Positions 36,180 through 53,244 are shown, counted from the first letter of the stretch. The stretch is DNA of 64,000 nt from Bacteroidaceae bacterium (GCA_963603335.1 CAVCML010000052.1:5665-69664); one strand, 5' to 3'. The notes: generated by a model not told the origin, from the letters alone. Numbers and translations: made by a program.

Positions 36180-38135
36180 ATGGAAGAAAAGCGAAAGCTC
36201 ATGGAAGAAAAAGCGGCTTATTTAAACAAGGCTGCCAGAGCCTACTATCAGGAGAGCCGCGAGCTGATTTCAAACCGGGAATACGATAAAATATATGATG
36301 AGCTGCAGGCGCTGGAAGAAGAAACCGGCATCGTGCTGGCAAACAGTCCGACCGTTCATGTGGGCTATGAGGTCATCAGCAGCCTGCCTAAGGAGCGGCA
36401 TCCTTCGCCTATGTTATCGCTTGATAAAACCAAGGACGTGGGGGCATTGAAAGGCTGGCTGGATGATAAGGAGGGACTGCTGTCCTGGAAACTGGACGGA
36501 CTGACCATAGTGCTGACTTATCAGGACGGCAGGCTCGCAAAGGCGGTCACCAGAGGCGATGGTATCACGGGAGAGGTCATCACAAGCAATGCGCGGGTGT
36601 TTGATAATATACCGCTGAGGATTCCCCGGACGGAGGAGCTGGTGGTTCGCGGTGAAGCGGTTATCACTTATGCGGATTTTGAAGAAATCAACAGGACCAT
36701 CGGCGATGCTGACGCAAAGTATAAAAATCCGAGGAATCTTTGCAGCGGTACGGTGCGGCAGCTTAACAATGAAATTACGGCGCAGCGCCACGTCAAGTTC
36801 TATGCATTTTCACTGGCGGCCGGCGGAGAGGAGTGCCGGACACGCGATGAACAGCTGGAGCTTTTGCGGCGGCAGGGATTTGAGACGGTGGAATATGTCA
36901 AGGTTACGCGGGAAACAATCGCGGATGCCGTGGCGGAGTTTGAGCGAAGGATTGCAGACTTTCCGGTGCCATCCGACGGACTGGTGCTGATTTATGACGA
37001 CATCGCCTATGGCAGGTCGCTGGGAAGTACAGCTAAGTTCCCGCGGGATTCCATCGCGTTTAAATGGATGGATGAACAGAGGAAAACTAAGCTGCAGGAT
37101 GTTCTTTGGAATGTGTCGCGGACGGGACTTATAAATCCTATAGCTGTATTTGAACCGGTAGAGCTGGAGGGAACGACGGTGAGCAGGGCTTCGGTGCATA
37201 ATCTGAGTATAGTGAAGGAACTGGCTCTCGGAACCGGCGATACAATCAAGGTATATAAAGCAAATATGATCATCCCGCAGATTGCGGAAAACCTGACCGG
37301 AAGCGGCAGCATCCGGCCGCCGGAACACTGTCCGGTATGCGGAAGCAAGACGGAAATCAAGGATGAAAACGGAGTCGAGACACTTCACTGTCCCAGCCCT
37401 GACTGCCCGGCCAAGCGAATCAAGTCATTTACTCACTTTGTGAGCCGGAACGCACTCAATATCGAGGGACTTTCGGAGGCGACTCTGGAGAAGTTCATAG
37501 ACGCTGCTATGATTCGTGAATTTGCTGATATTTTCAAACTGGAGCGGTTCAGGAAGCAGATTGTAGAAATGGAAGGCTTTGGAGAGAAATCCTTTGAGAA
37601 TCTCATTGCGGCGGCGGAGACGGCAAGTCACACAACACCGGCAAGGCTGCTGTACGGACTGGGAATCCCCAACATCGGAGCGGCCAATGCCAGGATGATT
37701 GCGGAGGCCTGTGAAAACAAGTGGCAGACCATTCAGAATCTGAGTGAAGAAGATCTGACGGCAATCGACGGCATCGGCGACGTGATGGCGAAAGCTTATA
37801 CGGCATTTTTTGCAGAAGAAGAAAACGCCCGGATTACCGCAGATCTTTTAGAAGTGCTGACCCTGGATGAAACCTTTGCAGCGAAAGAGGGCGGCGCACT
37901 GACTGGACTGACCTTCGTTATAACCGGAAAAGTTCATCATTTTGACAACAGAGATAAAGTGAAGGAAGCTATTGCTGCGGCCGGTGGTAAGACGGCGGGT
38001 TCGGTAAGCAGTAAGACCGATTATCTTATCAACAACGACAGTACATCGGCTTCATCAAAGAATAAAAAGGCTAAAGAATTAGGCGTAAAAATTATTACAG
38101 AAGAAGAGTTTATAAAAATGCTGGAAGAGGTGTAG
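36180..38135 (+). CDS. ligA: NAD-dependent DNA ligase
   Basis: Adenylation motif WKLDGLT, Zn-finger CPVCGS...CPSPDCP, HhH repeats and a C-terminal BRCT domain. Confidence 0.95.
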   Translation: MEEKRKLMEEKAAYLNKAARAYYQESRELISNREYDKIYDELQALEEETGIVLANSPTVHVGYEVISSLPKERHPSPMLSLDKTKDVGALKGWLDDKEGLLSWKLDGLTIVLTYQDGRLAKAVTRGDGITGEVITSNARVFDNIPLRIPRTEELVVRGEAVITYADFEEINRTIGDADAKYKNPRNLCSGTVRQLNNEITAQRHVKFYAFSLAAGGEECRTRDEQLELLRRQGFETVEYVKVTRETIADAVAEFERRIADFPVPSDGLVLIYDDIAYGRSLGSTAKFPRDSIAFKWMDEQRKTKLQDVLWNVSRTGLINPIAVFEPVELEGTTVSRASVHNLSIVKELALGTGDTIKVYKANMIIPQIAENLTGSGSIRPPEHCPVCGSKTEIKDENGVETLHCPSPDCPAKRIKSFTHFVSRNALNIEGLSEATLEKFIDAAMIREFADIFKLERFRKQIVEMEGFGEKSFENLIAAAETASHTTPARLLYGLGIPNIGAANARMIAEACENKWQTIQNLSEEDLTAIDGIGDVMAKAYTAFFAEEENARITADLLEVLTLDETFAAKEGGALTGLTFVITGKVHHFDNRDKVKEAIAAAGGKTAGSVSSKTDYLINNDSTSASSKNKKAKELGVKIITEEEFIKMLEEV

Positions 38136-38137
38136 CA

Positions 38138-39172
38138 ATGAAACTGGAAACGGGAAAGCTGGACAGTGAACTGTTAAAGAAGCTGGTGTTTGACAGGATT
38201 ACATACCGCAGTGACGATGTGAGCATACGTCCGGGAATAGGCGAGGACTGTGCGGTCATGGACTTTGGAGATTATGACTGCATCATGTCGACTGACCCGA
38301 TAACATCGGCGATAAGCGATATAGGCCGCCTGGCCATTCATATCACGTGCAATGACATCGCATCCAACGGAGTGCAGCCGCTGGGAATCATGCTGGCGGT
38401 AATGCTGCCGGAGGGTACGACATCGGAGGATGTAGCTTATATCATGGGGCAGGCAGCGGAAACTGCAGCGGATGTAAAGGTGGAAATCATCGGCGGTCAC
38501 ACGGAGATTACGCCAGCGGTGAAGCAGCCGGTCATCGTCTCCACGGCCATAGGCAAGGCGCTCAAGGGCGTTTCGCAGAGCGGCAACGACATGGTGCCGG
38601 GTGATTTTATCATGATGACCAAGGCGGTGGGGCTGGAAGGTTCGGGAATTATCGCATGTGATTACGAGAAGCAGCTTTCCGGTGTTCTTTCTGCAAAGGA
38701 GCTGGCGAGGGCAAAGTCGTTTTTGAATCTGGTGAGCGTTGTGCCGGAGGGTATCGCGGCAGGTACGGTGGGTACTCACGGCATGCACGATATTACGGAG
38801 GGCGGTATTCTGGGAGCTGTATGGGAGATGTGTCAGATTTCCGGACGCGGAGCACAGGTGTGGAAAAAAGAAATTCCGATAGAAACTGAGACGGCGAAAA
38901 TCTGTGATTATTATGATATCAATCCGCTGCGTCTGATTTCAAGCGGATCCATGGTGATTATAGTCCCAAAGGAAAAAAAGGACCGGATGGAAGCAGCTAT
39001 GGCACAGGCAGGCGTTTCCTGCAGCATCATCGGCCGCATCGAAGAAGCTGATTTCGGCATCCGTCTTTCGGAAGGCAGCGCACCGGCAGAGGAAGCGTCC
39101 GTTTCGCCGGAAAGCATGGCAGAGATAGATCCACCGTATATGGACGAGCTGTATAAGGTGGTTGGGAAGTAA
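38138..39172 (+). CDS. AIR-synthase-related (PurM/ThiL/HypE-fold) protein
   Basis: GEDCAV, STDPIT and IGGHTE segments are typical of the PurM-like superfamily. It starts 2 nt after ligA. Confidence 0.6.
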   Translation: MKLETGKLDSELLKKLVFDRITYRSDDVSIRPGIGEDCAVMDFGDYDCIMSTDPITSAISDIGRLAIHITCNDIASNGVQPLGIMLAVMLPEGTTSEDVAYIMGQAAETAADVKVEIIGGHTEITPAVKQPVIVSTAIGKALKGVSQSGNDMVPGDFIMMTKAVGLEGSGIIACDYEKQLSGVLSAKELARAKSFLNLVSVVPEGIAAGTVGTHGMHDITEGGILGAVWEMCQISGRGAQVWKKEIPIETETAKICDYYDINPLRLISSGSMVIIVPKEKKDRMEAAMAQAGVSCSIIGRIEEADFGIRLSEGSAPAEEASVSPESMAEIDPPYMDELYKVVGK

Positions 39173-39298
39173 CTGAAAAAAGTACTGATAGGAAAATGAG
39201 AAAAGAAACTATAGATCTGAATGTAAATAAATGCATTCGGATCTTTTTTTGTTATGTAGAAATGTATACAGCAAAGGCTTAAATAAACAAAATGTTTA

Positions 39299-39374
39299 TA
39301 TTCAAAAATGAATACCAATACGAAAAATGTCAATTTGGAAATGAATCACAGAACTCAGATATTCAAAAATGAAT
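39299..39374. promoter_or_regulatory. Candidate enhancer (UAS) boxes for the sigma54 activator, operon 1
   Basis: Perfect palindromes TATTCA-AAAA-TGAATA (39299-39314) and ATTCA-AAAA-TGAAT (39361-39374), about 198 and 137 nt upstream of the -24 element. The same motif recurs upstream of the second sigma54 promoter. Confidence 0.55.
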
Positions 39375-39497
39375 GAAGCGAGAAATGAGAAACTTTTCAG
39401 AATGTTTCTCGTGTTCAAAAAATAATACATGCGGAAGCGTTGAAATCTCAATGTTTTGCAAAAAATATCGAAAAAACAAAAAAAGAATTTGAGAAGT

Positions 39498-39513
39498 TGG
39501 CACGCGTGTTGCT
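39498..39513 (+). promoter_or_regulatory. Sigma54 (-24/-12) promoter, operon 1
   Basis: TGGCAC-GCGTG-TTGCT is an exact TGGCAC-N5-TTGCW match, 57 nt upstream of the ATG at 39570. Confidence 0.8.
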
Positions 39514-39569
39514 TTATATGAAGGCGTAAAGGAAAACATGGTGAAAACGAAATCGGAGGACTAATCAAG

Positions 39570-40766
39570 ATGACTGATTGCAAAAAACCGCTTGAGGGAT
39601 TAAAAGTATTAGATTTTACAAGAGTATATTCAGGACCGTACTGCACTATGATGCTCGGCGACCTGGGTGCCGATATCATAAAAGTAGAGCGAAAGGGTGT
39701 TGGTGATGAAACGCACTTCTTCGCGCCGATGAAAAATGATGAAAGCGGATATTTCGCTTACTTCAACAGAAATAAAAAAAGTCTGACTCTGGATCTTAAA
39801 GCTCCGGAGGCAGTGGAACTCATAAAGGATCTGGCTGAATGGGCAGATATCGTAGTAGAGAACTTCTCACCGGGAGTTGTGAATCGTCTGGGAATCGGAT
39901 ACGAGGATCTTAAAGAACGGAATCCGAAACTGATTTACGGTTCCATCTCGGGATTCGGTCAGACAGGACCGTATATGAAGAAGCCGGCTTACGATGTTGT
40001 CTGCCAGGCTATGGGCGGATTCATGTCGCTGACAGGCGAAAAGGACGGCAAGCCTTACAAAGTAGGTCCGTCGGTAGTTGACGCTCTTGCCGGAATTCAC
40101 ATGGCATTTGCCATAATGGCGGCCATCCACCACAGAGACAAGACCGGTGAAGGACAGTTCATCGATGTCGCTATGATGGACACGGCATTCTCGGTTCTGG
40201 AAAACTTTGTCGTAACAAAGACGTTGACCGGTGAAGCACCGACGAGAAACGGAAACGCCAATCTGGGATCCGCTCCGTTCAATACATTCAGAACGAAGGA
40301 CGGATATGTAGCTATCGCCTGCGCAAACAACGGCCTCTTTACAAAGCTGACAAAGGCCATCGGCAGAGAAGATCTCCTGGAAGTACCGGAGTACGCCGAA
40401 AATCATCTGAGAAAAGCTCATGAAGATACGCTGAATCCGGAAATCGAGAAATGGACTATGGAGCGTACGGCAGCAGAGGCAGTGGAAATTCTTGATGCCG
40501 CAAAGGTTCCGGTAGGTCCGATACTGGGAATCGACGATCTGGTGGAAGATCCTCAGATTAAGGCAAGAGATATGCTGGTGGATATCGATCATCCGATACT
40601 CGGCAAGGTGACATATCCGGGAAATCCGCTTAAATTCTCCGAAACTTCGGAACTGAGCTTTGAAAGAGCTCCGATGCTTGGAGAGCACAATGATTACATA
40701 CTAAAAGAAATATTGGGATTTGATGATGAAAAGATTGAGCAGTTAAAAGAGAAAGAAATCTTTTAG
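39570..40766 (+). CDS. Type III (CaiB/BaiF/Frc-family) CoA-transferase
   Basis: 398 aa. N-terminal hallmark LEGLKVLDFTRVYSGPYCTMMLGDLGADIIKVE. Confidence 0.9.
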   Translation: MTDCKKPLEGLKVLDFTRVYSGPYCTMMLGDLGADIIKVERKGVGDETHFFAPMKNDESGYFAYFNRNKKSLTLDLKAPEAVELIKDLAEWADIVVENFSPGVVNRLGIGYEDLKERNPKLIYGSISGFGQTGPYMKKPAYDVVCQAMGGFMSLTGEKDGKPYKVGPSVVDALAGIHMAFAIMAAIHHRDKTGEGQFIDVAMMDTAFSVLENFVVTKTLTGEAPTRNGNANLGSAPFNTFRTKDGYVAIACANNGLFTKLTKAIGREDLLEVPEYAENHLRKAHEDTLNPEIEKWTMERTAAEAVEILDAAKVPVGPILGIDDLVEDPQIKARDMLVDIDHPILGKVTYPGNPLKFSETSELSFERAPMLGEHNDYILKEILGFDDEKIEQLKEKEIF

Positions 40767-41167
40767 CATAAAGAACATGCTTTGAGGAGTGCTGCAAAAA
40801 ACTATTACATTTATTCACTGCGGACACTCGAGTAAGTCGTAACAGACAGGACTCCTGCAAAGCTGCGTTCGGAAAACAAATAAATTTGTCTCCATTTATC
40901 CATGTATGTCATTAATACGAAGTGCGCAGCCTGCATTTCGCAGGCTGCAGCTTCAGATGGCATATAAAGATAATTAATATAAATTATAACATTACACATA
41001 AATAACTTAGCAAATTAACTAACTTAAGAGACATTCTTAACTTAATTTAGTACTCCTTTTTTAGGTATCCGATAAATTATTTTGGAGAAGGTTCGTCGGA
41101 TATCTAAAGCAGGAGACAGAAAAGTCGTTCCTGAAATGTAACCGTCAATATAAAAGAGGAGGAGCAT

Positions 41168-41932
41168 ATGGATTTTTCGTTAAAAGAAAAGACTGCGATT
41201 GTAGTCGGAGGAAGCAAAGGTCTGGGCTTCGGTATGGCAACGGGACTTGCGAAAGCGGGAGCCAATGTTGTTCTGGTAAGCCGAAACCAGGGACAGTTAG
41301 ATGATGCAGCTGCAAAGATTTCTCAGGAAACCGGAAACGCCAACGTTGTTGGTTTTGCAACGGATATCACATCAACAGAAAACATCAACGGCCTTATTGC
41401 AAAGGTTTGTGACAAGTTCGGACAGATTGATATTCTGTTCAACGGAGCAGGCGTCAATAAGCGTTTCTCTGCTCTGGAATTCACTGAAGAAGATTGGGAC
41501 ATCGTACAGGATACGCAGCTGAAATACGTATTCTTCATGTGCCAGGCAGTAGCGAGACAGATGGTGGAAAAAGGCATCAAGGGAAAGATTATCAATATCG
41601 CTTCTCTGACAAGCGAGCTGGGACTGCCTAATATGATTTCATACTGCGCAGCTAAAGGTGCAATCGTACAGATTACAAAAGCTATGGCCAATGAATGGGC
41701 TCAGTACGGCATCAATGTAAATGCCATCGGACCGGGATACTATGAGACCGAGATGACTGCACCGCTCTTTGCAGATGAAAAACGCAGAGCAGAACTCTTT
41801 GCAAGAATCCCGCAGAAGAGATTCGGATTACCGTCCGACCTGGCAGGAGCCGCAGTATTCCTGGCTTCAGAAGCATCGGACTATGTAACGGGACAGGTGT
41901 TATATGTAGACGGAGGATTCCTCTGTTGTTAA
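41168..41932 (+). CDS. Short-chain dehydrogenase/reductase (KduD/gluconate-5-dehydrogenase-like)
   Basis: Cofactor motif VVGGSKGLGFG, plus NGAG and the catalytic YCAAK. Confidence 0.85.
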   Translation: MDFSLKEKTAIVVGGSKGLGFGMATGLAKAGANVVLVSRNQGQLDDAAAKISQETGNANVVGFATDITSTENINGLIAKVCDKFGQIDILFNGAGVNKRFSALEFTEEDWDIVQDTQLKYVFFMCQAVARQMVEKGIKGKIINIASLTSELGLPNMISYCAAKGAIVQITKAMANEWAQYGINVNAIGPGYYETEMTAPLFADEKRRAELFARIPQKRFGLPSDLAGAAVFLASEASDYVTGQVLYVDGGFLCC

Positions 41933-41985
41933 TCCATACAAACAATATATTTAATCGCTTTTAGCAAAAAAGGAGAGTAAACAAA

Positions 41986-43422
41986 ATGATGAATGGAAAT
42001 GAGTACAAGGAAAGTTTAAGAAAAATCCACCCGACGATTTATTACATGGGTGAAAAGATTGACTGCGTGGTAGATCATCCGATGATTAAGCCGCACGTAA
42101 ATTCTGCAGCAATGACATATGATCTGGCTTGCGATCCGATGTATGAGAACCTGATGACAGCAACTTCTCATCTGACAGGCAAGAAGGTAAACCGTTTTAC
42201 GCATATTCACCAGAGCATTGAAGATCTGGTAAACAAAGTAAAGATGATGAGAATGATTGCACAGAAGACAGGTACATGCTTCCAGAGATGCGTAGGCTTC
42301 GATGCAATGAACGCAACTTTCATCACTACTTATAACATGGACAAGAAGTACGGCACAAACTACCACGAAAGATTCAAGAAGTGGATGACATACGTACAGG
42401 AAAACGATCTCATGATCGCAGGTGCTATGACTGACGTTAAGGGCAACAGAAGCCTGAAGCCTTCCAAGCAGGCAGATCCTGACCTCTTCACTCACGTTGT
42501 TGAAAAGAGAGAAGACGGTGTTGTAATCTGTGGTGCAAAGGCTCACATGACAGGTATGGCAAACTCCCACGAAATGCTGATTCTGCCGACAACAAATCTG
42601 TTGGAAGATGACACGGATTACGCTATCGCATGTGCGGTTCCTGTAGATGCAGAAGGTATCACTCACATCTTCGGAAGACAGACAAACGATCAGAGAAGAC
42701 TGCAGGGCGACCTGGATACAGGTAACTCCGAATATGCTATCGTAGGCGGCGAAACACTGACGGTTCTGGATCACGTATTCGTTCCTTGGGACAGAGTATT
42801 CATGTGCGGAGAAGTTGATTTCGCTCAGGACTATGTAGCAAGATTTGCAGCATATCACAGACAGAACTACGGCGGATGCAAGGTTGGTAACTCCGATGTT
42901 CTTATCGGCGCTACTTCCATGATCGCTAAGATGAACGGAACCAGAAAGAACAGCCTGATTAAGGATAAGCTTACAGAAATGATTCATCTGGCAGAAACAA
43001 TGTACTGCTGCTCCCTGGCTTGCTCTTATGAAGGTGTTAAAGAAGAAGCCGGAAGCTATTATGTAAATACATTACTGGCTAACGAAGTTAAGCTCAACTG
43101 CACCAGAAACATGTATGAGATTTCCAGACTGGCTCACGATATCGCAGGCGGATTTATCGCAACGCTGCCTCACGAGTGGGATCTGAACAATCCGGAAACA
43201 GGCAAGTGGATTGAGAAGTTCTTCGTAGGAAATGAAGAGTACACGGCAAGAGACAGAATCAAGATCGCAAGACTTCTTGAAAACATGTCCGGCGGTACTG
43301 CTCTGGCAGAGTCCATGCACGGCGCAGGTTCCCCGCAGGCTATGAAGGTAATGATTCTGAGAGAATCCAACGTAGAACAGAAAGAACAGTTCGCAATGGA
43401 TCTGGCACACGTGAAATTATAA
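41986..43422 (+). CDS. abfD: 4-hydroxybutyryl-CoA dehydratase / vinylacetyl-CoA isomerase (AbfD)-type FAD/[4Fe-4S] enzyme
   Basis: 478 aa. It is collinear with C. aminobutyricum AbfD as I recall it. All four cluster ligands are conserved: CFQRC (C98, C102; nt 42277-42291) and YHRQNYGGC (H291, C298; nt 42856-42879). Confidence 0.85.
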   Translation: MMNGNEYKESLRKIHPTIYYMGEKIDCVVDHPMIKPHVNSAAMTYDLACDPMYENLMTATSHLTGKKVNRFTHIHQSIEDLVNKVKMMRMIAQKTGTCFQRCVGFDAMNATFITTYNMDKKYGTNYHERFKKWMTYVQENDLMIAGAMTDVKGNRSLKPSKQADPDLFTHVVEKREDGVVICGAKAHMTGMANSHEMLILPTTNLLEDDTDYAIACAVPVDAEGITHIFGRQTNDQRRLQGDLDTGNSEYAIVGGETLTVLDHVFVPWDRVFMCGEVDFAQDYVARFAAYHRQNYGGCKVGNSDVLIGATSMIAKMNGTRKNSLIKDKLTEMIHLAETMYCCSLACSYEGVKEEAGSYYVNTLLANEVKLNCTRNMYEISRLAHDIAGGFIATLPHEWDLNNPETGKWIEKFFVGNEEYTARDRIKIARLLENMSGGTALAESMHGAGSPQAMKVMILRESNVEQKEQFAMDLAHVKL

Positions 43423-43560
43423 TTTCAATCACAGCATCGCGCCGGATTAACCAACCGGCGTGATGATCTGATATATTTAAAGTTTAGCAAACGCGGGTGT
43501 AAAAAATGATTTTAGAGAAAGTCTGCTAATTGGAACGCAGCACAGAATGGAGGAAGAACA

Positions 43561-44742
43561 ATGAATGAAGTTGTAATAGTAGAGGGGGTCAGAACCGCTA
43601 CCGGCGTGTTCGGAGGCTCATTAAGTAAAATTCCGGCACCGGTACATGGCGCAGAATGTGTAAAAGCGCTGGTTGAAAGAACAGGAATAAAGCCTGAGGA
43701 TATCGATGAACTGATTATCGGAACTCACTTCCAGGCAGGAACAAAAGCTAACCCGGCTCGTCAGTGCGGTATCTATGCAGGTCTGCCGGATACGATCCCG
43801 GCATTCACACCGAACAAGAACTGTGCAACAGCCATGAAGGCAATGCAGTGCGCAGCACAGTCCATTCAGGTTGGTGACAATGAAGTAGTAATCGCAGGCG
43901 GCTGCGAGACTATGAGTGCAATCCCTTACATCCTGCCGAAGGCAAGATTCGGATACAGAATGGGACCGGGAAAAATCGAAGACAGCATGCTTCATGACGG
44001 ACTCGTTGACCCGTTCATGAACTACCACATGGGTATTACAGCAGAAAACGTAGCAGAAAAATGCGGCATCACCAGAGAAATGCAGGACAGATTTGCTGTA
44101 AACAGCCATAACAAAGCGGAAAAAGCATGGGCTGAGGGGAAATATGACAATGATATCGTGCCTATTACAACGAAGGTAAAGGGACAGGAAGTCGTATTTG
44201 ACCACGATGAAACATATAGAAAAGACGCAAAGTATGAGAACTTTGCAAAACTGAAGCCTATCTTCAAAGAAGGCGGAACAGTAACAGCAGGAAATGCTTC
44301 CCCGATCAATGACGGATCGTGCGTGCTGCTGATGATGTCGGCAGAAAAGGCAAAGGCGCTTGGTTACAAGCCGATCGCTAAGTACATTGCAGCAACGTCA
44401 ACAGCTCTCAGTCCATCTATCATGGGATACGCACCGGTAAGCGCTGTTGAAAAACTGGAAAAGAAGACAGGAATCAGCCGTTACGATGTAGGTCTTTATG
44501 AACTGAACGAAGCGTTTGCAGCTCAGGCAGCAGCATGCGTACAGGATCTGAAGCTGGATCCGGAAATCGTAAACGTAAACGGCGGCGCAGTAGCTTTGGG
44601 ACACGCTGTAGGATGTACCGGAGCAAGAATCAGCTTGACTCTGATGCGTGAAATGCAGAGAAGAAAGGTTCAGTACGGAATCGCTTCACTGTGCATCGGC
44701 GGCGGACAGGCTATGGCAATGATGTTTGAACTGTGCGAATAA
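43561..44742 (+). CDS. Acetyl-CoA acetyltransferase (thiolase II)
   Basis: 393 aa. Active-site contexts NKNCATAMKA, GNASPINDG, NGGAVALGHAVGCTG and CIGGGQ. Confidence 0.9.
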   Translation: MNEVVIVEGVRTATGVFGGSLSKIPAPVHGAECVKALVERTGIKPEDIDELIIGTHFQAGTKANPARQCGIYAGLPDTIPAFTPNKNCATAMKAMQCAAQSIQVGDNEVVIAGGCETMSAIPYILPKARFGYRMGPGKIEDSMLHDGLVDPFMNYHMGITAENVAEKCGITREMQDRFAVNSHNKAEKAWAEGKYDNDIVPITTKVKGQEVVFDHDETYRKDAKYENFAKLKPIFKEGGTVTAGNASPINDGSCVLLMMSAEKAKALGYKPIAKYIAATSTALSPSIMGYAPVSAVEKLEKKTGISRYDVGLYELNEAFAAQAAACVQDLKLDPEIVNVNGGAVALGHAVGCTGARISLTLMREMQRRKVQYGIASLCIGGGQAMAMMFELCE

Positions 44743-44760
44743 TAATTTGGAGGAATCAGG

Positions 44761-45615
44761 ATGACTGTTAAAAAATTATATGTCGTAGGTTCCGGAGCAA
44801 TGGGCTCCGGAATCGCACAGACAGCGGCAACTCATGGTATTCAGGTTACTATGAATGACATAAATGAAGAATTTGTTGCAAAAGGTTACAACAAAATCAA
44901 GAAGAGCCTGGAAAAGGCTGTTACAAAGGGCAGAATGACAGAAGAAGCTAAAGAGGAAGCACTTGCAAACTTGACAACTACAGTCTCGCTGGAAGATGCA
45001 AAGGATGCTGATTTTGTTATCGAAGCTGCATCGGAAAACAAGGAAATAAAGCTGGGAATCTTCAAGCAGTTAGATAAAATCTGTAAGCCTGAAGCAATCC
45101 TTGCTTCCAACACATCTTCTCTGCCGATTACAGAAATCGCAGCAGCAACCGAAAGACCGGATCAGGTAATCGGAACTCACTTCTTCAACCCGGTACCGGC
45201 TATGAAGCTGCTGGAGATCGTAATGGGACTTCAGACATCCGAGACAACTTATCAGGCAGCGCTGGCTCTGGGAGAGCAGCTGGAAAAAGTGCCTGTAAAG
45301 GCAATGGACAAAGGCGGTTTCATTGTAAACAGACTGGTTGACCCGTTCATCAATGAAGCGGTATTCATGCTTGAAGAAGGCGTTGGTACTGCAGAAGATA
45401 TCGACAACGGCTGTAAGTTCGGACTCAACCACCCGATGGGTCCTCTTGCATTAGGCGATATGATCGGTTGGGATGTTATGCTGGCGGTTATGGACGTACT
45501 GTATTATGAATACGGTGATCCTAAGTACAGACCGGCACCGCTGATGAGAAGAATGGTAAGAGCTGGACATCTCGGTGTTAAAACCGGTAAAGGTGTTTAT
45601 GATTATTCGAAATAA
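44761..45615 (+). CDS. hbd: 3-hydroxybutyryl-CoA dehydrogenase
   Basis: [13 protein letters not shown] Rossmann motif, NTSSLPITE, and GFIVNRL. Confidence 0.9.
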
Positions 45616-45626
45616 TGAGGTGTGTT

Positions 45627-46406
45627 ATGGAATATAAGAACATTATTTTTGAAAAGAAAGACGGTATCGGCTACGTTACAATGAATCGTCCTAAAGCTCT
45701 GAATGCTTTGAATACAGACGTTTTGACAGAACTGGATGATGTGTTCCGTGCAATTGATAAAGACGATGAAGTTCAGGTTGCAATTGTAACCGGAGAGGGA
45801 AGATCTTTCATCGCAGGTGCTGATATTGCACAGATGAGCGACCTGAACGGCACAGAGGGCCGCGACATGACAATCCAGGGTCAGCTGGTAATGGAACTTA
45901 TCGAAACTATCAACAAGCCTGTTATCGCTGCGGTAAACGGATTCGCTCTTGGCGGCGGAAATGAACTGGCTATGGCATGCGACATCAGAATTGCTTCCGA
46001 AAAAGCTAAATTCGGTCAGCCGGAAGTAAACCTGGGAATTATTCCGGGATACGGCGGAACACAGAGACTGCCGCGCCTTGTCGGAAAAGGTATGGCAAAG
46101 AAGCTGATCTACAGTGCAGAGATGATTGATGCACAGGAAGCTTACCGCATCGGTCTGGTGCAGGAAGTTGTACCGGCAGAAGAGCTTATGGAAGCTGCTG
46201 AAAAGCTGGCAAAGACTATCATGAGCAAGGCTCCGATTGCTATCAAGATGGCAAAGGTTGCTATCAATAACGGACTGAGCACAGATCTGAAGACAGGCGT
46301 ACAGTTCGAAGCGGAAGCTTATACGAGCACATTCGTATCCGAAGACAGAGTAGAAGGTATGAAGGCGTTTGTAGAAAAGCGTCCGGCTGAATTTAAAAAT
46401 AAATAA
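45627..46406 (+). CDS. crt: Enoyl-CoA hydratase (crotonase)
   Basis: YVTMNRPKALNAL, FIAGADI and GGGNELAMACDIRIA motifs. The ATG follows GAGGTG. Confidence 0.85.
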   Translation: MEYKNIIFEKKDGIGYVTMNRPKALNALNTDVLTELDDVFRAIDKDDEVQVAIVTGEGRSFIAGADIAQMSDLNGTEGRDMTIQGQLVMELIETINKPVIAAVNGFALGGGNELAMACDIRIASEKAKFGQPEVNLGIIPGYGGTQRLPRLVGKGMAKKLIYSAEMIDAQEAYRIGLVQEVVPAEELMEAAEKLAKTIMSKAPIAIKMAKVAINNGLSTDLKTGVQFEAEAYTSTFVSEDRVEGMKAFVEKRPAEFKNK

Positions 46407-46473
46407 ACGAGAACGCTACAGCGGAAAGAGATACTCTTTTTCCGAAAAATAATTTTGAACCTTTCCTTAAAGT

Positions 46474-46510
46474 AAAAGATGCCGGTCTGTTAAAGAACTC
46501 GGCATCTTTT
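46474..46510. terminator. Bidirectional terminator between crt and the sigma54 activator gene
   Basis: Stem AAAAGATGCCG / CGGCATCTTTT, flanked by A- and T-runs. Confidence 0.7.
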
Positions 46511-46532
46511 ATTTATAGAAACAAATGCAGTT

Positions 46533-48347
46533 TTACTCTATTCCATCGGGGAACAGCTCTTTATATTTTCGAAAGAATGTCGGTTGGCTCATGTCAAGCA
46601 ATGCAGCAGCTTTATAGGTGGAGCCGCCCTGCCTCATGGCACGTTGAATTAATTCTTTTTCCATGTTTTTCTTGGCTTCGGCATAGGTCGGCAAGGTATC
46701 GGATGCTAAAATATTCGATGTTTTCATTTCTGAATTATGAAATTCCTGCTTCACTGTAAATTCCGGTGCAAACGGGGCATCGAGAATATTGTCATCGGCA
46801 AAAACGAATTGTTTTTCAATGAAATTTTTTAATTCGCGAATGTTTCCCGGCCAGTCATGGTGCTGCAGATGCTGGATGAAATGCGGGGTCATGATTTTGT
46901 GTGCGCCGTATTTCCGGTTCAGATCCTGCAGCGATTTTTCTGCCAGATCGGGTATATCGTCCCTGCGGTCGCGCAGCGGCGGGATGTTGATGGACACCAC
47001 ATTGAGGCGGTAATATAAATCGCTTCGGAAGGTTCCTTCCTCAATCATTTCTTTCAGATTTCGGTTGGTGGCGGCGACGATGCGAACGTCGACTTTTTTG
47101 CTCTTCTGTCCGCCGACCCGGGTAACTTCTCGATCCTGCAGAACCCGCAGGAGGGCCGACTGGAGGTTGATAGGCAGCTCACCGATTTCATCCAGGAAGA
47201 GCGTGCCTGTATCGGCCAGTTCGAACATGCCGGGCTTTCCCTTGGCACTGGCTCCGGTAAAAGCTCCGGGAACGTAACCGAAGAGCTCTGATTCCAGCAG
47301 GTTTTGAGGAATTGCACCGCAGTTGATTTTGATATACGGTTTGCCGTCGCGCATGCTGTGTTTATGAATGTACTGAGCAACGACCTCTTTACCGACGCCG
47401 GTCTCTCCCAAAATCAATACGGTTGAATCCATGCGTGAAATTTTTTCCGCCATTGCAAGTACAGCGGAGAATTCATTGCTGCTGCAGACGATGTTTTCAT
47501 GTGAAGATTCCTGCATAAGCTGGCTTTTATATAAATCCGCACGATCCGTTTCAACCTGAAGTTTTTTGTTCAGGCTGATAATCTCGGTGATATCGCGAAC
47601 GTTGGTGATTACATTGCGGACATTTCCGTTGTTGTCAAATACAGGGCTTCCGGTGATGAATACCTCTTTGTTGTTTGAATTCGTCTGTGTGCGGGTTATT
47701 ACCTCCTTGCGTTTAACGACATCGTGCGTAATGCTTGTAGAGAGTATGCCTCGTGCGATAAGATCGTCCATATACTCACCGACAAGTTTTGTGCGGGGTA
47801 TACCGGAAATTCGTTCGTATGCTTTGTTGACAAGGATTGTTTTGCCGGTGTAATCTGTGATATAGATGCCGTCATAAGAATTGTCAAGGATATCGCCGAG
47901 CAGATGTGCGTTTCTGAGATTTCTGTTGGTGCGCTCATCGTATATGTTTGCGTCGGTCAATTCGCAGAGATGGCTTACGACGGCGAGAATTTCATTATCG
48001 TGAACGAGAGGAATTCGTTCTGAATATACTTTTTTGTTTTTAAGCGTAAATTCCTTCGGAAGCGATGCAAGGTCGCCCGCTTTTGAGAAAGTGAAAGGGC
48101 ACAAAGGGAGCGTATTGTTTAAGTCATGATCAATCATCGATGATTCAGAGACCTCAAAAAGCGCAGCAGCCAGATAGTTTGCCATAACAATTCTGTTGTT
48201 GGAATCGATAGCGATGACAGCCATATTGGAAGCTTCAATGTATGAATCGGTAAAATCATTTATGATTTCAGGAAGCTCGGGACAGCTGCCTTTGTAATTT
48301 GGAAAAAACAGATTTAAGTACTCTGTAATGAATGTTTGTGAAATCAT
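46533..48347 (-). CDS. Sigma54-dependent transcriptional activator (PAS sensor domains, AAA+ domain, Fis-type HTH)
   Basis: Walker A GETGVGKE, the sigma54-contact loop GAFTGA (in YVPGAFTGAS), RVGG, and the C-terminal HTH YKAAALLDMSQPTFFRKYKEL. I chose the ATG at 48347, after GAGGTGG. Confidence 0.9.
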   Translation of the reverse strand: MISQTFITEYLNLFFPNYKGSCPELPEIINDFTDSYIEASNMAVIAIDSNNRIVMANYLAAALFEVSESSMIDHDLNNTLPLCPFTFSKAGDLASLPKEFTLKNKKVYSERIPLVHDNEILAVVSHLCELTDANIYDERTNRNLRNAHLLGDILDNSYDGIYITDYTGKTILVNKAYERISGIPRTKLVGEYMDDLIARGILSTSITHDVVKRKEVITRTQTNSNNKEVFITGSPVFDNNGNVRNVITNVRDITEIISLNKKLQVETDRADLYKSQLMQESSHENIVCSSNEFSAVLAMAEKISRMDSTVLILGETGVGKEVVAQYIHKHSMRDGKPYIKINCGAIPQNLLESELFGYVPGAFTGASAKGKPGMFELADTGTLFLDEIGELPINLQSALLRVLQDREVTRVGGQKSKKVDVRIVAATNRNLKEMIEEGTFRSDLYYRLNVVSINIPPLRDRRDDIPDLAEKSLQDLNRKYGAHKIMTPHFIQHLQHHDWPGNIRELKNFIEKQFVFADDNILDAPFAPEFTVKQEFHNSEMKTSNILASDTLPTYAEAKKNMEKELIQRAMRQGGSTYKAAALLDMSQPTFFRKYKELFPDGIE

Positions 48348-48365
48348 ATAAACCACCTCGTTTCA

Positions 48366-48374
48366 TGGTATAAT
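48366..48374 (+). promoter_or_regulatory. Possible extended -10 promoter for the small CGGC ORF
   Basis: TGGTATAAT (TGnTATAAT), 47 nt upstream of the ATG at 48421. Confidence 0.35.
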
Positions 48375-48420
48375 ATTGTATATGATTTAACAATTATATC
48401 ACAAATAGAGGAATGCGGAC

Positions 48421-48699
48421 ATGAATAATAAATATAGTATCGGAATATTGTTTTGCGGCGGATGCAATTGCTACTATGACAGAGAAAAATTTTACAGGGA
48501 ATTACAGGAAAATATGAAAGACGATTGTGTGTTCTCATATTACAGGGAGGAGTGTGAATACGATCTCGTTCTCATGATCAACGGATGCCAGTCGGAGTGT
48601 CTGATAGGACATGAATACGGTGCGGACAAACTTCTGATCAATAATAAAAATTATGAAAATGCGGAAAAGCTTATACGGGACGCACTTAAATATTCATAG
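48421..48699 (+). CDS. Small Cys-rich protein (92 aa) with a CGGC motif
   Basis: GILFCGGCNCYYD and NGCQSECL cysteine clusters. RBS GAGGAA is present. Function is unknown. Confidence 0.4.
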   Translation: MNNKYSIGILFCGGCNCYYDREKFYRELQENMKDDCVFSYYREECEYDLVLMINGCQSECLIGHEYGADKLLINNKNYENAEKLIRDALKYS

Positions 48700-48854
48700 A
48701 TGAATACAAAACGGATTCAAAAGTGAATCAGGATTCGTTATTGAATTTTGAATAAATGAAAATTTCAGAAAGAATAAATGCCCAAATGAAACCCGTTGAA
48801 ATCAGACGGTTTCAGCGCCTATTCATTTTGAAATAAATAAATTGAATAATGAAT
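48691..48854. promoter_or_regulatory. Candidate enhancer (UAS) boxes for the sigma54 activator, operon 2
   Basis: Perfect palindromes TATTCA-TAGA-TGAATA (48691-48706) and GATTCA-AAAG-TGAATC (48714-48729). Degenerate copies lie at 48740-48753, 48821-48834 and 48841-48854. Confidence 0.55.
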
Positions 48855-48857
48855 AAT

Positions 48858-48873
48858 TGGCACGCAATTTGCG
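48858..48873 (+). promoter_or_regulatory. Sigma54 (-24/-12) promoter, operon 2
   Basis: TGGCAC-GCAAT-TTGCG, 101 nt upstream of the ATG at 48974. Confidence 0.75.
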
Positions 48874-48973
48874 ATATATATTGGCGGCGCCAAAAGAAAG
48901 TTATTATAATTGACATTTTATTTATTTCAGAAGAATCAGAAATCGTTTATTTGGAATTGAGAAAGGAAAAAGT

Positions 48974-50437
48974 ATGAGTACACAGAACAATAATCTGGAA
49001 CGCCAGACTTTTGCCAAAACTCTTGGTAGAGGAGAAATTTGGGCATTCGCCTTCGGATCTGTAGTAGGATGGGGCTGGGTAATGCTCGCAGGAGGCTGGG
49101 TAAGTTCAGCCGGAAGTGTTGGAGCTATTATAGCATTCGTAATTGCAGGACTTGTTTGCGGATTTATCGGAATGGCATTTGCAGAGCTTTGCCCTATGAT
49201 TCCTCAGACAGGAGGCGTATTGGTATTTGCTTACAGAGCAGGTGGATATAAATTCGGCTGGTTCGCAGCGTGGGCGATGGCATTCGCTTATATCGCAGTA
49301 GCATGCTGGGAAGGTCCGGCGTTCGGAAGTGCGGTGGAATATCTGATTCCGCAGCTTACAAACAATGCGGATGTTCTTTATTCTATTGAAGGATATGATG
49401 TAACTCTGCCATGGGTTATCATCGCATTGGCAGGTACTGTATTCACAATCATTTGCAACTGGATCGGCATGAGCTTTGCTAAGATTGTAAACACAATCGC
49501 AGCACTGGCACTGGTAGCCGGTGGTTTAATCTTCTTCTTCGGAGGTGTAACATTAGGTGATGTTTCCAACGCTCTGCCTGCATTCAACAGCGGCTTCAGC
49601 GGCATATTTATCGTACTTATGGCTGCACCGGCTATGTTCGTTGGATTCGACGTTATTCCGCAGTCGGTAGAAGACATGAAGATTCCTATGAAGCAGGTTG
49701 GTAAAATGGTTATTTTGGCAATCGTGCTCGGAGCAATCTGGTACATCCTGATGATTATAGGATCCTCTTTCGGCGCACCGGCATCATTCCGTGACAACGC
49801 AAGCATCCCGGTAGCTGATATCGCTACTTATGTATTTGGATCCAAGATCTTCGGTTCATTCGTTATCATCGCAGGTATCGGCGGCATCCTGACAAGCTGG
49901 AACGCTATGTACATCGGGGCTACAAGAATCCTCTTCGCACTTGCAAGAGCTAAGATGCTTCCGCCTGTATTCAGCAAACTGCACCCTAAATACAATTCAC
50001 CTACAGCAGCTCTGATTCTGGTTGGAGCACTGGGACTGGCATCCGTATTCCTCGGCAAGAACGCACTGGGATGGTTCGTAGACGCAAGTTCCTTCGGTAC
50101 TGTAGTAGCATACTTCTGCGCAGCTTTGGCATTCTACAAGTTAAAGGTAGACGAACCGGATACAGAAAGACCGTTCAAGGCACCGTTAGGAAAGTTCATG
50201 GCTATCCTGGCTATCGTATCCTCCGGATTATTCATCTGCATCTACCTGCCGTTCAGCCCATCCGGTGGCCTGGGACATATGGAATGGATCATGGTTGCTC
50301 TGTGGACAGTAATCGGTATCATCCTCGCTATCAGCGTTCGCTGCAGCAGCTACTCCAAGGTTACAGCTGCTGAACGTGAATACCTGATCTTTGGTGAAGA
50401 ATATGCCAGAAAGTCTATAATAGACGCTGACAAATAG
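48974..50437 (+). CDS. APC-superfamily amino acid permease
   Basis: 487 aa, about 12 TM helices. It is the first gene after the sigma54 promoter. Confidence 0.8.
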   Translation: MSTQNNNLERQTFAKTLGRGEIWAFAFGSVVGWGWVMLAGGWVSSAGSVGAIIAFVIAGLVCGFIGMAFAELCPMIPQTGGVLVFAYRAGGYKFGWFAAWAMAFAYIAVACWEGPAFGSAVEYLIPQLTNNADVLYSIEGYDVTLPWVIIALAGTVFTIICNWIGMSFAKIVNTIAALALVAGGLIFFFGGVTLGDVSNALPAFNSGFSGIFIVLMAAPAMFVGFDVIPQSVEDMKIPMKQVGKMVILAIVLGAIWYILMIIGSSFGAPASFRDNASIPVADIATYVFGSKIFGSFVIIAGIGGILTSWNAMYIGATRILFALARAKMLPPVFSKLHPKYNSPTAALILVGALGLASVFLGKNALGWFVDASSFGTVVAYFCAALAFYKLKVDEPDTERPFKAPLGKFMAILAIVSSGLFICIYLPFSPSGGLGHMEWIMVALWTVIGIILAISVRCSSYSKVTAAEREYLIFGEEYARKSIIDADK

Positions 50438-50654
50438 TAACTTGATTAGATAAAACGTAAATATAAAAATTCATTCTAATGAAGAGAAAGCAGTCATGCA
50501 GTGACGTAAATGTTGCTGCATGGCTGTTTTCCTTTTGCATAAAAAAATATCGGTATGCAAGCGAAAAATCCTTGAAATCTAAACGCGTATGCACTATTAT
50601 GTACAATGTGGCGTGTATAATTATACATGCATGAGTAAACATCAGGAGGTTGTT

Positions 50655-50858
50655 ATGGCGGAAATTAAAGTGGATGTCAGCAGATGCAAAGGCTGTTTTT
50701 TATGTACAAGCGTTTGCCCTAAAGGCGTGCTGATACCATCGGACGAATTAGGTGTAAAGGGATTCCCTATCGTACACCGGGACGAGACTAAGGAATGTAT
50801 CGGATGCGGAGCCTGCTACAAAATGTGCGGCGACTACTGCATCGAGATTATAGATTAA
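50655..50858 (+). CDS. 2-oxoacid:ferredoxin oxidoreductase delta subunit (2x[4Fe-4S] ferredoxin)
   Basis: 67 aa from the ATG after AGGAGG. Motifs CKGCFLCTSVCP and CIGCGACYKMC. Confidence 0.8.
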   Translation: MAEIKVDVSRCKGCFLCTSVCPKGVLIPSDELGVKGFPIVHRDETKECIGCGACYKMCGDYCIEIID

Positions 50859-50872
50859 GAGGAGGCAGAATC

Positions 50873-51949: not shown

Positions 51950-51961
51950 GGAGGTGCCTCA

Positions 51962-52702: not shown

Positions 52703-53244
52703 TGAATGAGATAATCTGCTCAGGATTAGGAGGACAGGGTGTTCTCGTTGCCGGCATGATTTTAGCCGATATGGCTATGGAGGATGGCAAGAACGTTTCC
52801 TGGTATCCTTCATACGGATTCGAGATGCGCGGCGGTGCAGCCAACTGTGAGCTCAAAATCGGCGATGAGGATCTGCAAAGCCCGTATTGCCTGGAACCTG
52901 ATGTATTATATACACTCAGCGAATCGGCTATTGATTCGTTCGAAGACAGACTTAAGCCGGGCGGCGTACTGCTGGTGAATTCAAGCCTTACCAGCGATGA
53001 ACGCAAGTATCGTGATGATATTACGGTTATCAAGGTGCCGGCTACCGAGATTGCAAATGAACTTAAAAACGGACGCGGCACTAATCTGGTAATGCTGGGC
53101 GCCATGGCAGCTGCATCGGATTTATACGATGTAGAACAGATGCAGGCAGGCATTCGGAATTACTTCGGCAAGAAGGGCAAGAACAATCCTAAGAACGACC
53201 GGTGCTTTGAGCGCGGTGTTGAAGCGGCAAGGGGGCAGTTATAA
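52702..53244 (+). CDS. 2-oxoacid:ferredoxin oxidoreductase gamma subunit
   Basis: GLGGQGVLVAG motif. 180 aa. Its ATG overlaps the beta-subunit stop codon. Confidence 0.8.
   Translation: MNEIICSGLGGQGVLVAGMILADMAMEDGKNVSWYPSYGFEMRGGAANCELKIGDEDLQSPYCLEPDVLYTLSESAIDSFEDRLKPGGVLLVNSSLTSDERKYRDDITVIKVPATEIANELKNGRGTNLVMLGAMAAASDLYDVEQMQAGIRNYFGKKGKNNPKNDRCFERGVEAARGQL

Follow-up and report, generated by a model that had tools for sequence, protein, structure and literature searches.

We describe a gene cluster centered on a homolog of AbfD, the 4-hydroxybutyryl-coenzyme A (CoA) dehydratase (4HBD), in a stretch of 64,000 nucleotides from a Bacteroidaceae bacterium (GCA_963603335.1, CAVCML010000052.1:5665-69664; hereafter the window). 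AbfD is among the few enzymes that remove an unactivated β-hydrogen by radical chemistry. Judged from sequence, the cluster has recognizable enzyme families, an intact AbfD catalytic apparatus, two promoters that share an enhancer motif, and conserved synteny. The initial annotation of the window had left two options: non-orthologous replacement within a 4-hydroxybutyrate (4HB) route, or an AbfD homolog that acts on a different 4-substituted butyryl-CoA. That framing is supported, and it tilts toward replacement because the catalytic set of AbfD is kept, the clade of the accompanying CoA-transferase is married to AbfD, and fuller versions of the cluster parallel the canonical one. We favor a reading in which AbfT and AbfH, and GabT in relatives, have been replaced by unrelated enzymes within the 4HB route. 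Specifically, a type III CoA-transferase would act on 4HB and a short-chain dehydrogenase/reductase (SDR) would reduce succinate semialdehyde, a reading to which we assign a probability of roughly 0.55.

Composition of the cluster

Families were assigned by Pfam and NCBIfam profile searches of the open reading frames (ORFs) in the window. Six plus-strand ORFs were found at positions 39570-46406, arranged as follows.

39570..40766, + strand: type III (Frc/YfdE/SUGCT-like) CoA-transferase, CoAT1; PF02515 over its full length
40767..41167: noncoding spacer of 401 bp with a G+C-rich hairpin at ~40924-40950 that lacks a T-tract
41168..41932, + strand: classical SDR of the KduD/gluconate-5-dehydrogenase type; Pfam adh_short
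41986..43422, + strand: AbfD homolog, 478 aa; HpaB_N and HpaB_C, match to 1u8v
43561..44742, + strand: acetyl-CoA C-acetyltransferase (thiolase); Thiolase_N/C, TIGR01930 at 458 bits against a cutoff of 241
44761..45615, + strand: (S)-3-hydroxybutyryl-CoA dehydrogenase (Hbd); NF004474 at 421 bits against a cutoff of 408
45615..46406, + strand: crotonase (Crt; short-chain enoyl-CoA hydratase); ECH_1, NF004475 at 382 bits against a cutoff of 394

These assignments bear out the initial annotation, in which a type III CoA-transferase and an SDR opened the operon and thiolase, hbd, and crt lay downstream of AbfD. The start of crt is possibly at 45627 rather than 45615; identical contigs carry a 259-aa version. 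An identical AbfD is present on metagenome contigs and in one metagenome-assembled genome (MAG), and the named relatives of the CoA-transferase are Anaerovoracaceae.

We infer that 39570-46406 is a single operon, assuming co-transcription through the 401-bp spacer. The spacer contains no ORF, promoter, or Rfam family, has no repeat copy elsewhere, and lacks a counterpart in the loci of other species, where ~60 bp separate the CoA-transferase and SDR genes if these are in the same order. All conspecific contigs that cover the spacer (L001-L006) have it in identical form. A riboswitch or other RNA element in the spacer or leader was considered and rejected, since Rfam returned nothing for 38000-50000 at E ≤ 1 and the spacer is species specific.

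The AbfD homolog retains the dehydratase active site

The AbfD homolog matched HpaB_N and HpaB_C with E values of 1e-101 and 3.5e-63. Its match to AbfD of Clostridium aminobutyricum (1u8v; E = 7.5e-167, 54% identity) and to 4HBD of Nitrosopumilus maritimus (6vjr; E = 1e-147) was far stronger than that to the best true HpaB (E = 2.5e-39). These two experimentally proven 4HBDs are themselves only ~58% identical to each other. Alignment to the C. aminobutyricum enzyme confirmed the earlier claim that the 478-aa protein holds all four [4Fe-4S] ligands, as C98, C102, H291, and C298 align with C99, C103, H292, and C299. The ligand list is that of bioRxiv 10.1101/2020.02.05.935528, which reports T190, E257, Y296, and E455 as further requirements for dehydratase activity. 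All four are kept in the window protein (T189, E256, Y295, and E442), along with R89, Q100, M148, K299, and A447, which correspond to R90, Q101, M149, K300, and A460 of C. aminobutyricum.

To judge how common this set is, we surveyed 82 full-length AbfD-like relatives in a library of 50%-identity cluster representatives (P0241-P0390). The four Fe-S ligands were kept in 39 of the 82, and only three of those 39 also keep T190, E257, Y296, and E455. The window AbfD has the complete catalytic set too, and the rarity of that set (3/82 representatives) places it in the functional core. Its identity to the AbfDs of related loci (described below) is 70-88%, as against 52-54% to canonical enzymes. Together, these comparisons strongly support its assignment as a bona fide 4HBD, while changes specific to its lineage may bear on specificity. 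As a separate observation, the gap between 39 representatives with the ligands and 3 with the catalytic set suggests a broad radiation of Fe-S "AbfD-like" proteins whose functions are unexplored.

Textbook partners of AbfD are absent from the window

According to the initial annotation, the AbfT/Cat2-type CoA-transferase, the iron-type 4HB dehydrogenase, and the CoA-dependent succinate-semialdehyde dehydrogenase (SucD) were missing, and this proved correct across the 64-kb window. In a Pfam scan of ORFs of at least 150 aa, minus short ORFs overlapping longer genes, there was no AcetylCoA_hydro (AbfT/Cat2) domain and no iron-containing alcohol dehydrogenase (Fe-ADH) domain. Searches of the window by tblastn with AbfT from Aminipila and Anaerovorax, and with the Aminipila Fe-ADH, likewise gave no match. 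The sole Aldedh protein of the window (9991-11502), 28 kb away, was considered as a hidden SucD and rejected, being of the generic nonacylating type and in a different gene context. No GabT-type aminotransferase was found near the operon. The reported lack of a reductive Bcd/Etf branch also stood for the window, where the same scan found neither Acyl-CoA_dh nor ETF domains. The orthologous cluster of Emergencia timonensis does carry Bcd/EtfBA (acd-etfBA) downstream.

A CoA-transferase clade tied to AbfD

The CoA-transferase covers PF02515 completely (protein residues 8-374 on model positions 1-366 of 366, E = 5e-135). It fell below every NCBIfam equivalog cutoff (Frc, YfdE, CaiB, succinyl-CoA:mesaconate, succinate-glutarate) and can therefore be assigned to no characterized specificity; its best scores were 353 bits against 700 for the succinyl-CoA:mesaconate transferase, 342 against 442, and 338 against 750. 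The nearest solved structures are SUGCT, YfdE, and Frc, matched over the full length with E values of 1e-91 to 1e-74. Residue D171, which sits in VGPSVVDALAGIH, is invariant in 16 orthologs. The match to Frc runs from query residues 6-209 onto chain residues 3-207; these boundaries would place D171 at or near residue 169, the catalytic aspartate of Frc (Asp169).

In a neighbor-joining tree of the retrieved homologs, all AbfD-linked transferases fell into one Firmicutes clade. Clade members are 49-72% identical to the window CoA-transferase, and the AbfD-linked ones at least 51%. Where flanks were adequate, a window-type AbfD lay within 6 kb in 16 of 20 clade loci (17 of 21 including L096). Such linkage was found for none of ~40 adequately flanked homologs at ≤46% identity, which come from archaea, Chloroflexota, and Proteobacteria. 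The clade is specific to AbfD neighborhoods, and adjacency to AbfD defines it. We propose that the enzyme is a 4HB CoA-transferase, with its substrate predicted from this context.

The SDR is predicted to use NADP(H)

The SDR matched adh_short with E = 7e-55. It has the motifs GGSKGLG at 14-20 and NGAG at 92-95, together with S146 and Y159-x3-K163, which complete an N-S-Y-K tetrad. After β-2 there is a Ser-Arg pair (37-38) and no acidic residue, and the enzyme is predicted to use NADP(H). Its nearest structures are KduD, gluconate 5-dehydrogenase, and HpsO, all of which act on free hydroxy-acids. It also scores above the cutoff of a generic "glucose 1-dehydrogenase" subfamily and has FabG-type matches. 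We propose that it is a succinate-semialdehyde reductase that forms 4HB.

The cluster recurs with variable feeder modules

The initial annotation had suggested a survey of gene neighborhoods. We searched the CoA-transferase profile against one genome per species and mapped the window proteins onto the loci returned. The arrangement is conserved: the same gene set occurs in at least 17 distinct loci from several families, and its co-localization is far beyond chance. The arrangement is widespread and not unique to the source genome. It was found in E. timonensis SN18 (L011), Bacilliculturomica massiliensis (L007/L017), Megasphaera paucivorans (L029), and Candidatus Coprocola (L041), as well as in MAGs of Anaerovoracaceae (L009, L012, L014, L015, L018), Peptococcaceae (L020), soil Bacillota (L021), Oscillospiraceae (L024), and gut Clostridia (L025-L027). 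The shared core consists of the CoA-transferase, AbfD, a small AF_0334-family protein, and thl/hbd, with or without crt. Feeder modules vary, with transporters of several families, among them the amino acid-polyamine-organocation (APC) superfamily, the major facilitator superfamily (MFS), and the sodium:solute symporter family (SSF). They are listed here by locus, transporter, added genes, and SDR.

L024, L096: AtoE-type short-chain-fatty-acid transporter directly after AbfD and AF_0334; no added genes; SDR absent
L020: SSF transporter; no added genes; SDR absent
Window: APC permease; no added genes in the window; SDR present
L011 (E. timonensis): APC permease; HemL/GntE-like class III aminotransferase; SDR present
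L007, L009, L018: no transporter seen within 10 kb (L009, two MFS genes); HemL/GntE-like class III aminotransferase; SDR present
L015: APC and EutH-like permeases; no added genes seen on the short contig; SDR present
L025-L027: EutH-like permease; CN-hydrolase and NfnAB-like genes, aminotransferase seen in L027; SDR present
L041: APC and EutH-like permeases; CN-hydrolase and HemL/GntE-like aminotransferase; SDR present
L021: MFS transporter; zinc-type alcohol dehydrogenase (Zn-ADH); SDR present
L029: MFS transporter; FAD-linked oxidase; SDR present

What stays constant across these loci is the CoA-transferase, whose product AbfD would take as its substrate. The simplest clusters are those of L024 and L096, with a sigma-54 enhancer-binding protein (EBP), CoA-transferase, AbfD, AF_0334, an AtoE transporter, and divergent thl/hbd, a type common on metagenome contigs. 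Together with L020, they point to an imported short-chain acid that is activated directly with CoA, immediately ahead of the AbfD step. In the fuller clusters, the additions (SDR, APC permease, and a HemL/GntE-like amine:aldehyde transaminase) are exactly those that a pathway leading to 4HB would require, which supports the proposed route. The SDR is present in every related cluster with amine or MFS feeder modules and absent alongside an AtoE- or SSF-type carboxylate transporter. It appears only where something upstream of the acid needs conversion. The NfnAB-like genes beside it in some loci fit its predicted use of NADPH.

The minimal clusters also bear on the order of steps. CoA activation could come first, as with CaiB and BbuB/C on betaines: the transferase would activate the amino acid itself, and 4-aminobutyryl-CoA would be converted to 4-oxobutyryl-CoA and then 4-hydroxybutyryl-CoA by aminotransferase and SDR. 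Type III transferases of E. timonensis do activate γ-butyrobetaine, many SDRs act on acyl-CoA or acyl-ACP (the window SDR has FabG-type matches), and the CoA-transferase gene heads the operon. Clusters without SDR or aminotransferase argue instead that the transferase product is already the AbfD substrate. Moreover, the nearest SDR relatives take free acids, and CoAT1 is nearer to SUGCT, YfdE, and Frc than to CaiB. 4-Aminobutyryl-CoA also readily cyclizes to 2-pyrrolidone. We regard this order as very unlikely.

Some loci have further companions. Sigma-54-promoted CN-hydrolase (nitrilase/amidase-like) genes accompany the cluster in L009 (361-6001) and in L025, L027, and L041 (~15000-17100). 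With them are two MFS genes and three ORFs without a family match in L009, and an EutH-like permease in the gut loci. These hydrolases could be feeder steps that free an amine or acid from an amide precursor. The Fe-ADH of L009 was considered as a canonical AbfH that would make the SDR redundant. It was rejected, as it resembles methanol/1,3-propanediol dehydrogenases (198 bits) more than the 4HB dehydrogenase used for comparison, Cvir-Hbd2 (82 bits). The class I transferase of L009 is YdiF-like.

Two predicted sigma-54 promoters link the operon to a permease gene

The functional unit is larger than 39570-46406, the extent first given. A sigma-54 activator, the AF_0334-family protein, and an APC permease lie outside it, together with the elements listed here.

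39300-39313 and 39361-39374: two perfect ATTCA-N4-TGAAT palindromes from a motif search, putative enhancer (upstream activating sequence)
39498..39512, + strand: sigma-54 (-24/-12) promoter TGGCACgcgtgTTGC; perfect match, 58 bp before the CoA-transferase start
46533..48356, - strand: sigma-54 EBP (unassigned N-terminal region, PAS, AAA+, HTH); Sigma54_activat and PAS
48421..48699, + strand: AF_0334-family (PF27236) Cys-rich protein, 92 aa; precomputed Pfam assignment
48692..48854: second putative enhancer region; perfect palindromes at 48692 and 48715, one-mismatch copies at 48733, 48740, and 48841
48858..48872, + strand: second sigma-54 promoter TGGCACgcaatTTGC; perfect match, before the permease gene
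48974..50437, + strand: APC-superfamily amino-acid/amine permease, proposed importer; AA_permease_2
50486..50531, + strand: strong intrinsic-terminator-like hairpin with a 20-bp stem and T-run, ending the permease transcription unit

The pattern TGGCAC-N5-TTGC has two perfect sites in the 64-kb window, at 39498 and 48858, and no others. Perfect copies of ATTCA-N4-TGAAT number four in the window, and every one is 140-200 bp ahead of one or the other of these two promoters. Both elements are conserved in other genera: L007, L012, L025, L027, and L041 have the palindrome upstream of their CoA-transferase promoters, and in at least 10 related loci the orthologous CoA-transferase gene follows an equivalent sigma-54 promoter. 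Three such promoters are present in E. timonensis, one each ahead of the aminotransferase gene, the permease gene, and the transferase operon. Orthologs of the EBP (37-51% identity) adjoin most related clusters; the protein resembles PrdR, below the cutoff. The palindromes are putative activator binding sites, and the EBP is the putative activator of both promoters. These patterns support co-regulation of the operon and the APC permease gene by the two promoters with their shared enhancer motif. Orthologs of the permease (59-65% identity) occur in the clusters of E. timonensis, L015, and L041.

The unit appears to end with the permease gene. A sigma-70-like promoter (50572-50600) follows the permease terminator, and because terminator and promoter intervene, the downstream operon for a 2-oxoacid:ferredoxin oxidoreductase (OFOR) is a separate unit. 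We considered one large regulon that would include 50656-57284 and rejected it on these grounds; in addition, the OFOR there is VorB-like and unrelated to the PorA-like OFOR linked to AbfD in other loci.

The AF_0334-family protein, ~90 aa and Cys-rich (CGGC...NGCxSEC), lies beside AbfD in most variant clusters. Homologs occur in L094 (10576-10839), L095 (9690-9959), L096 (11440-11784), and L011 (8639-8905), and also inside a canonical-type NifU-AbfD-AF_0334-AbfT cluster. It looks like a dedicated companion of AbfD, perhaps in maturation or redox activation, and not like a partner of the regulator. In L096, a gene call (11830-13587) merges the AtoE-type transporter with sigma-54 core- and DNA-binding domains, which implies that rpoN lies immediately downstream of that cluster.

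A proposed 4HB route and the observations against it

Taking these observations together, we consider it a somewhat better than even bet that the cluster is a catabolic regulon under sigma-54/EBP control that funnels a C4 omega-functionalized acid through 4HB. The APC permease would import an amino compound, most simply 4-aminobutyrate (GABA). A transaminase would yield succinate semialdehyde; this enzyme is not encoded in the window, and its counterpart in the clusters of relatives would be the HemL-like class III enzyme. The NADPH-type SDR would reduce succinate semialdehyde to 4HB, as suggested by its position in the cluster, its cofactor motif, and its similarity to free-acid dehydrogenases. 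The type III CoA-transferase may then form 4-hydroxybutyryl-CoA, probably with acetyl-CoA as the donor, which is the most economical choice; clade linkage and the minimal clusters point to this step. Conversion of 4-hydroxybutyryl-CoA to crotonyl-CoA by the radical [4Fe-4S]/FAD mechanism of AbfD is the step that sequence most strongly supports. Crt, Hbd, and thiolase, whose families are clear, would run in the direction from crotonyl-CoA to two acetyl-CoA. One acetyl-CoA would pay for CoA transfer, and the other could give ATP. A 4HB route is further supported by the relatives of the two replacement enzymes, as the nearest SDR relatives take free hydroxy-acids and those of the CoA-transferase use acetyl- or succinyl-CoA with small carboxylates.

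Several observations weigh against this route. E. timonensis SN18, which carries every ortholog of the regulon, consumed no GABA, either as growing or as resting cells (Rajakovich et al., PMC8364193). Its orthologous cluster is BN6539_RS13090-RS13125, which we matched to L011 by gene lengths, gene order, and contig position in the published expression tables (PMC8364193). In these data, the cluster was essentially unexpressed in peptone-yeast-glucose medium (PYG) with or without 1 mM GABA (CoA-transferase baseMean, 1.6), and its hbd/crt/acd reached ~0.0003 reads per kilobase per million (RPKM) after GABA, against ~20 for the housekeeping hbd. RS13090-RS13125 was not induced by γ-butyrobetaine, carnitine, or GABA. 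We conjecture that glucose in PYG may repress the cluster. The window permease is neither GabP- nor GadC-type, and there is no cluster-type aminotransferase in the window, where the sole HemL-like one (3346-4662) is 29% identical and in another context. Between the window SDR and those of distant clusters, identity is only 42-50%, a level no higher than with KduD-type enzymes, which makes orthology uncertain. The AbfD lineage carries fixed changes directly beside catalytic residues (Q256G, S295N, and T454A in C. aminobutyricum numbering; G255, N294, and A441 in the window protein), and its flanking loops have an insertion of 2 aa and a deletion of 4 aa. The EutH-like permeases and CN-hydrolase of the gut clusters hint at a neutral, amide, or amino-alcohol precursor. 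Finally, the same AbfD lineage occurs without any CoA-transferase in operons of the type POR-AbfD-thl-hbd-crt-acd-etf, where POR is a PorA-like OFOR (L095, L097).

In the last group (L095, 5963-17375; L097, 7027-14313) and in L029 (2643-12080), AbfD stands directly behind a PorA-like four-subunit OFOR and before thl-hbd-crt(-acd-etfBA). L029 has the transferase and SDR as well. One idea is that a PorA-like OFOR accepting 5-hydroxy-2-oxopentanoate would give 4-hydroxybutyryl-CoA directly. These operons resemble those for butyrate synthesis. They, and the acd-etfBA downstream in E. timonensis, raise the prospect that AbfD-thl-hbd-crt belongs mainly to central butyrate/acetyl-CoA metabolism. There, AbfD would be a vinylacetyl-CoA isomerase or run in reverse, with the CoA-transferase as a short-chain acyl-CoA:acetate transferase of general function and the SDR as an unrelated passenger. 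Substrate-induced catabolism, by contrast, typically shows such sigma-54/EBP control and a dedicated permease. Further, the cluster is silent in E. timonensis while butyrate-pathway transcripts come from other loci, and a generic role leaves the tight linkage of the transferase clade to AbfD, and not to thl/hbd generally, unexplained. We judge a role in central metabolism highly improbable.

The same chemistry could serve a compound other than GABA, a version we think unlikely. In one form, a C5 4-oxo or 4-hydroxy acid (levulinate, 4-hydroxyvalerate) would be the substrate, with the SDR as a ketoreductase, AbfD acting on 4-hydroxyvaleryl-CoA, and thiolase releasing acetyl-CoA and propionyl-CoA. 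In another, a neutral, amino-alcohol, or lactam precursor (4-aminobutanol, 2-pyrrolidone) would reach 4HB by another feeder. Besides the lack of GABA use or induction in E. timonensis, the substitutions beside E257, Y296, and E455, and the permeases and hydrolase of the gut versions, this would fit the pairing of MFS transporters with Zn-ADH or FAD oxidase in L021 and L029. A canonical GABA cluster exists in the same family, so the second cluster may serve a second substrate. SDRs are also more typically ketone/lactol oxidoreductases, and the window SDR passes the generic "glucose 1-dehydrogenase" cutoff. Against a different substrate, all residues known to matter for 4-hydroxybutyryl-CoA dehydration are kept, and positions 256 and 454 vary also among the representatives that hold the full catalytic set. 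Homology (45%) also ties the window permease to that of the canonical abf cluster, and we found no literature tying AbfD to levulinate. 4-Aminovalerate, 4-aminobutanol, and levulinate are not known to be abundant natural gut substrates. A further candidate, 5-aminovalerate, was set aside: C. viride uses Fe-ADHs and canonical clusters, and the known 5-hydroxyvaleryl-CoA dehydratase is a different, Fe-S-free enzyme.

Implications and surroundings

Gut gene catalogs use AbfD with an AbfT-type transferase to mark the 4-aminobutyrate/succinate route to butyrate, and current catalogs probably miss this type of cluster. Should the type III transferase and SDR prove to be the actual partners here, gut and environmental Firmicutes, including E. 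timonensis, Coprocola, Oscillospiraceae, Megasphaera, and many MAGs, carry a 4HB route that marker sets have missed or misassigned. Type III CoA-transferases would gain a new specificity, and an NADPH-linked SDR would join the known succinate-semialdehyde reductases. It is also conceivable, though unlikely, that this is not a GABA pathway at all but a widespread gut regulon for an unrecognized substrate, for instance a C5 4-oxo/4-hydroxy acid or a precursor of the amide, lactam, or amino-alcohol type. The AbfD lineage, with its loops beside E257 and E455 remodeled, would then have shifted specificity, the AbfD-associated type III clade would define a new transferase specificity, and the AF_0334 protein would be an accessory factor devoted to the radical dehydratase, in its maturation or redox activation. 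Since the published failure on GABA concerns a cultured organism, E. timonensis, the question of the substrate can be put to a concrete test there, and the conserved promoter/enhancer motif offers a handle for finding the inducer.

The rest of the window holds other functions. Upstream of the cluster are pcrA, ligA, and an AIR-synthase-like gene ending in a terminator-like hairpin. Farther upstream, at 3346-11502, is an unassigned group of genes, in which one for a HemL/GntE-like class III aminotransferase precedes those for a hydantoinase/caprolactamase-alpha-like protein, a protein of 585 aa with a B12-binding domain at its C terminus, an EamA transporter, and a generic aldehyde dehydrogenase. 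The separate operon at 50656-57284 contains a VorB-like OFOR (delta, alpha, beta, gamma), a second, divergent type III CoA-transferase, a betaine/carnitine/choline transporter (BCCT), and a class I/II, methionine-aminotransferase-like aminotransferase. It could be an oxidative branch for an amino acid bearing a betaine-type group. At 57553-63807 are an RnfB-like Fe-S protein, a 1186-aa single-chain pyruvate:ferredoxin oxidoreductase, and a GltD-like NAD(P)H oxidoreductase, all ordinary energy metabolism.

Comparison with known systems

In the literature, we found no paper linking AbfD with a type III transferase, an SDR, Anaerovoracaceae, or levulinate. The window system was compared with one enzyme family and four known pathways or regulons. 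Within the Frc/YfdE/SUGCT branch, the likeness of the CoA-transferase lies in the full-length match and a conserved Asp (D171) at or near the expected catalytic position; known members use oxalate, formate, or C5 dicarboxylates, not 4HB.

In the succinate route of Clostridium kluyveri and Porphyromonas gingivalis (Cat1, SucD, 4HbD, Cat2, AbfD), 4HB is likewise converted to 4-hydroxybutyryl-CoA and crotonyl-CoA. The window lacks the acylating SucD, the Fe-ADH, and the Cat1/Cat2-type transferase of that route, and its amine-type permease makes an amino substrate more likely than succinate. The canonical composition has been described (PMC13495136).

The bbu/gbu γ-butyrobetaine cluster (BbuA-F) of E. 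timonensis uses a type III transferase to activate a 4-substituted butyrate, followed by elimination at C4 to crotonyl-CoA (PMC8364193). It shares with the window cluster that kind of transferase and substrate, the crotonyl-CoA product, and the organism group. BbuA, however, is an acyl-CoA-dehydrogenase-like flavoenzyme that is ~10% identical to 4HBD and has no Fe-S cluster; its leaving group is trimethylamine, the transporter is of the BCCT type, and no sigma-54 control has been reported. In E. timonensis the two are separate loci, the window-type cluster being RS13090-RS13125.

The "XanR" sigma-54 regulon of Clostridium spp., abfD-nifU-hyp-ach-golB (Nie et al. 2019, PMC6615313), is similar in being a sigma-54-dependent abfD operon with a small hypothetical gene. 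An Anaerovorax locus (L094) with NifU-AbfD-AF_0334-AbfT and a sigma-54 response regulator matches the predicted abfD-nifU-hyp-ach regulon (PMC6615313). This regulon differs from the window cluster in its AbfT-type "ach," its two-component regulator or different EBP, and its canonical AbfD lineage, and it has no type III transferase or SDR.

The closest parallel is the canonical abf cluster. The nearest relatives of C. aminobutyricum AbfD (83-93% identical) are found in Aminipila, Anaerovorax, and other Anaerovoracaceae. The Aminipila luticellarii locus encodes Aminotran_3, AbfT, Fe-ADH, AbfD, AA_permease, and a sigma-54 EBP (gabT-abfT-abfH-abfD-permease). It shares with the window system an AbfD with the same ligand and catalytic set, control by sigma-54 and an EBP, and the family Anaerovoracaceae; the permeases are 45% identical over their full length, and the EBPs 36%. 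The same slots are filled one by one (transaminase, dehydrogenase, CoA-transferase, dehydratase), but with different enzymes. The window transferase is type III (PF02515) whereas AbfT belongs to the AcetylCoA_hydro family, and the window dehydrogenase is an NADP-type SDR in place of an Fe-ADH, with unrelated folds in both slots. The transaminase of relatives is a HemL/GntE-like class III enzyme, only 32% identical to the GabT-like one of Aminipila. The window AbfD forms a separate lineage, 52-54% identical to canonical enzymes, and thl/hbd/crt are fused to the cluster. Set against this canonical system, the apparently uncharacterized window cluster is a widespread and regulated form of the textbook pathway in gut anaerobes.

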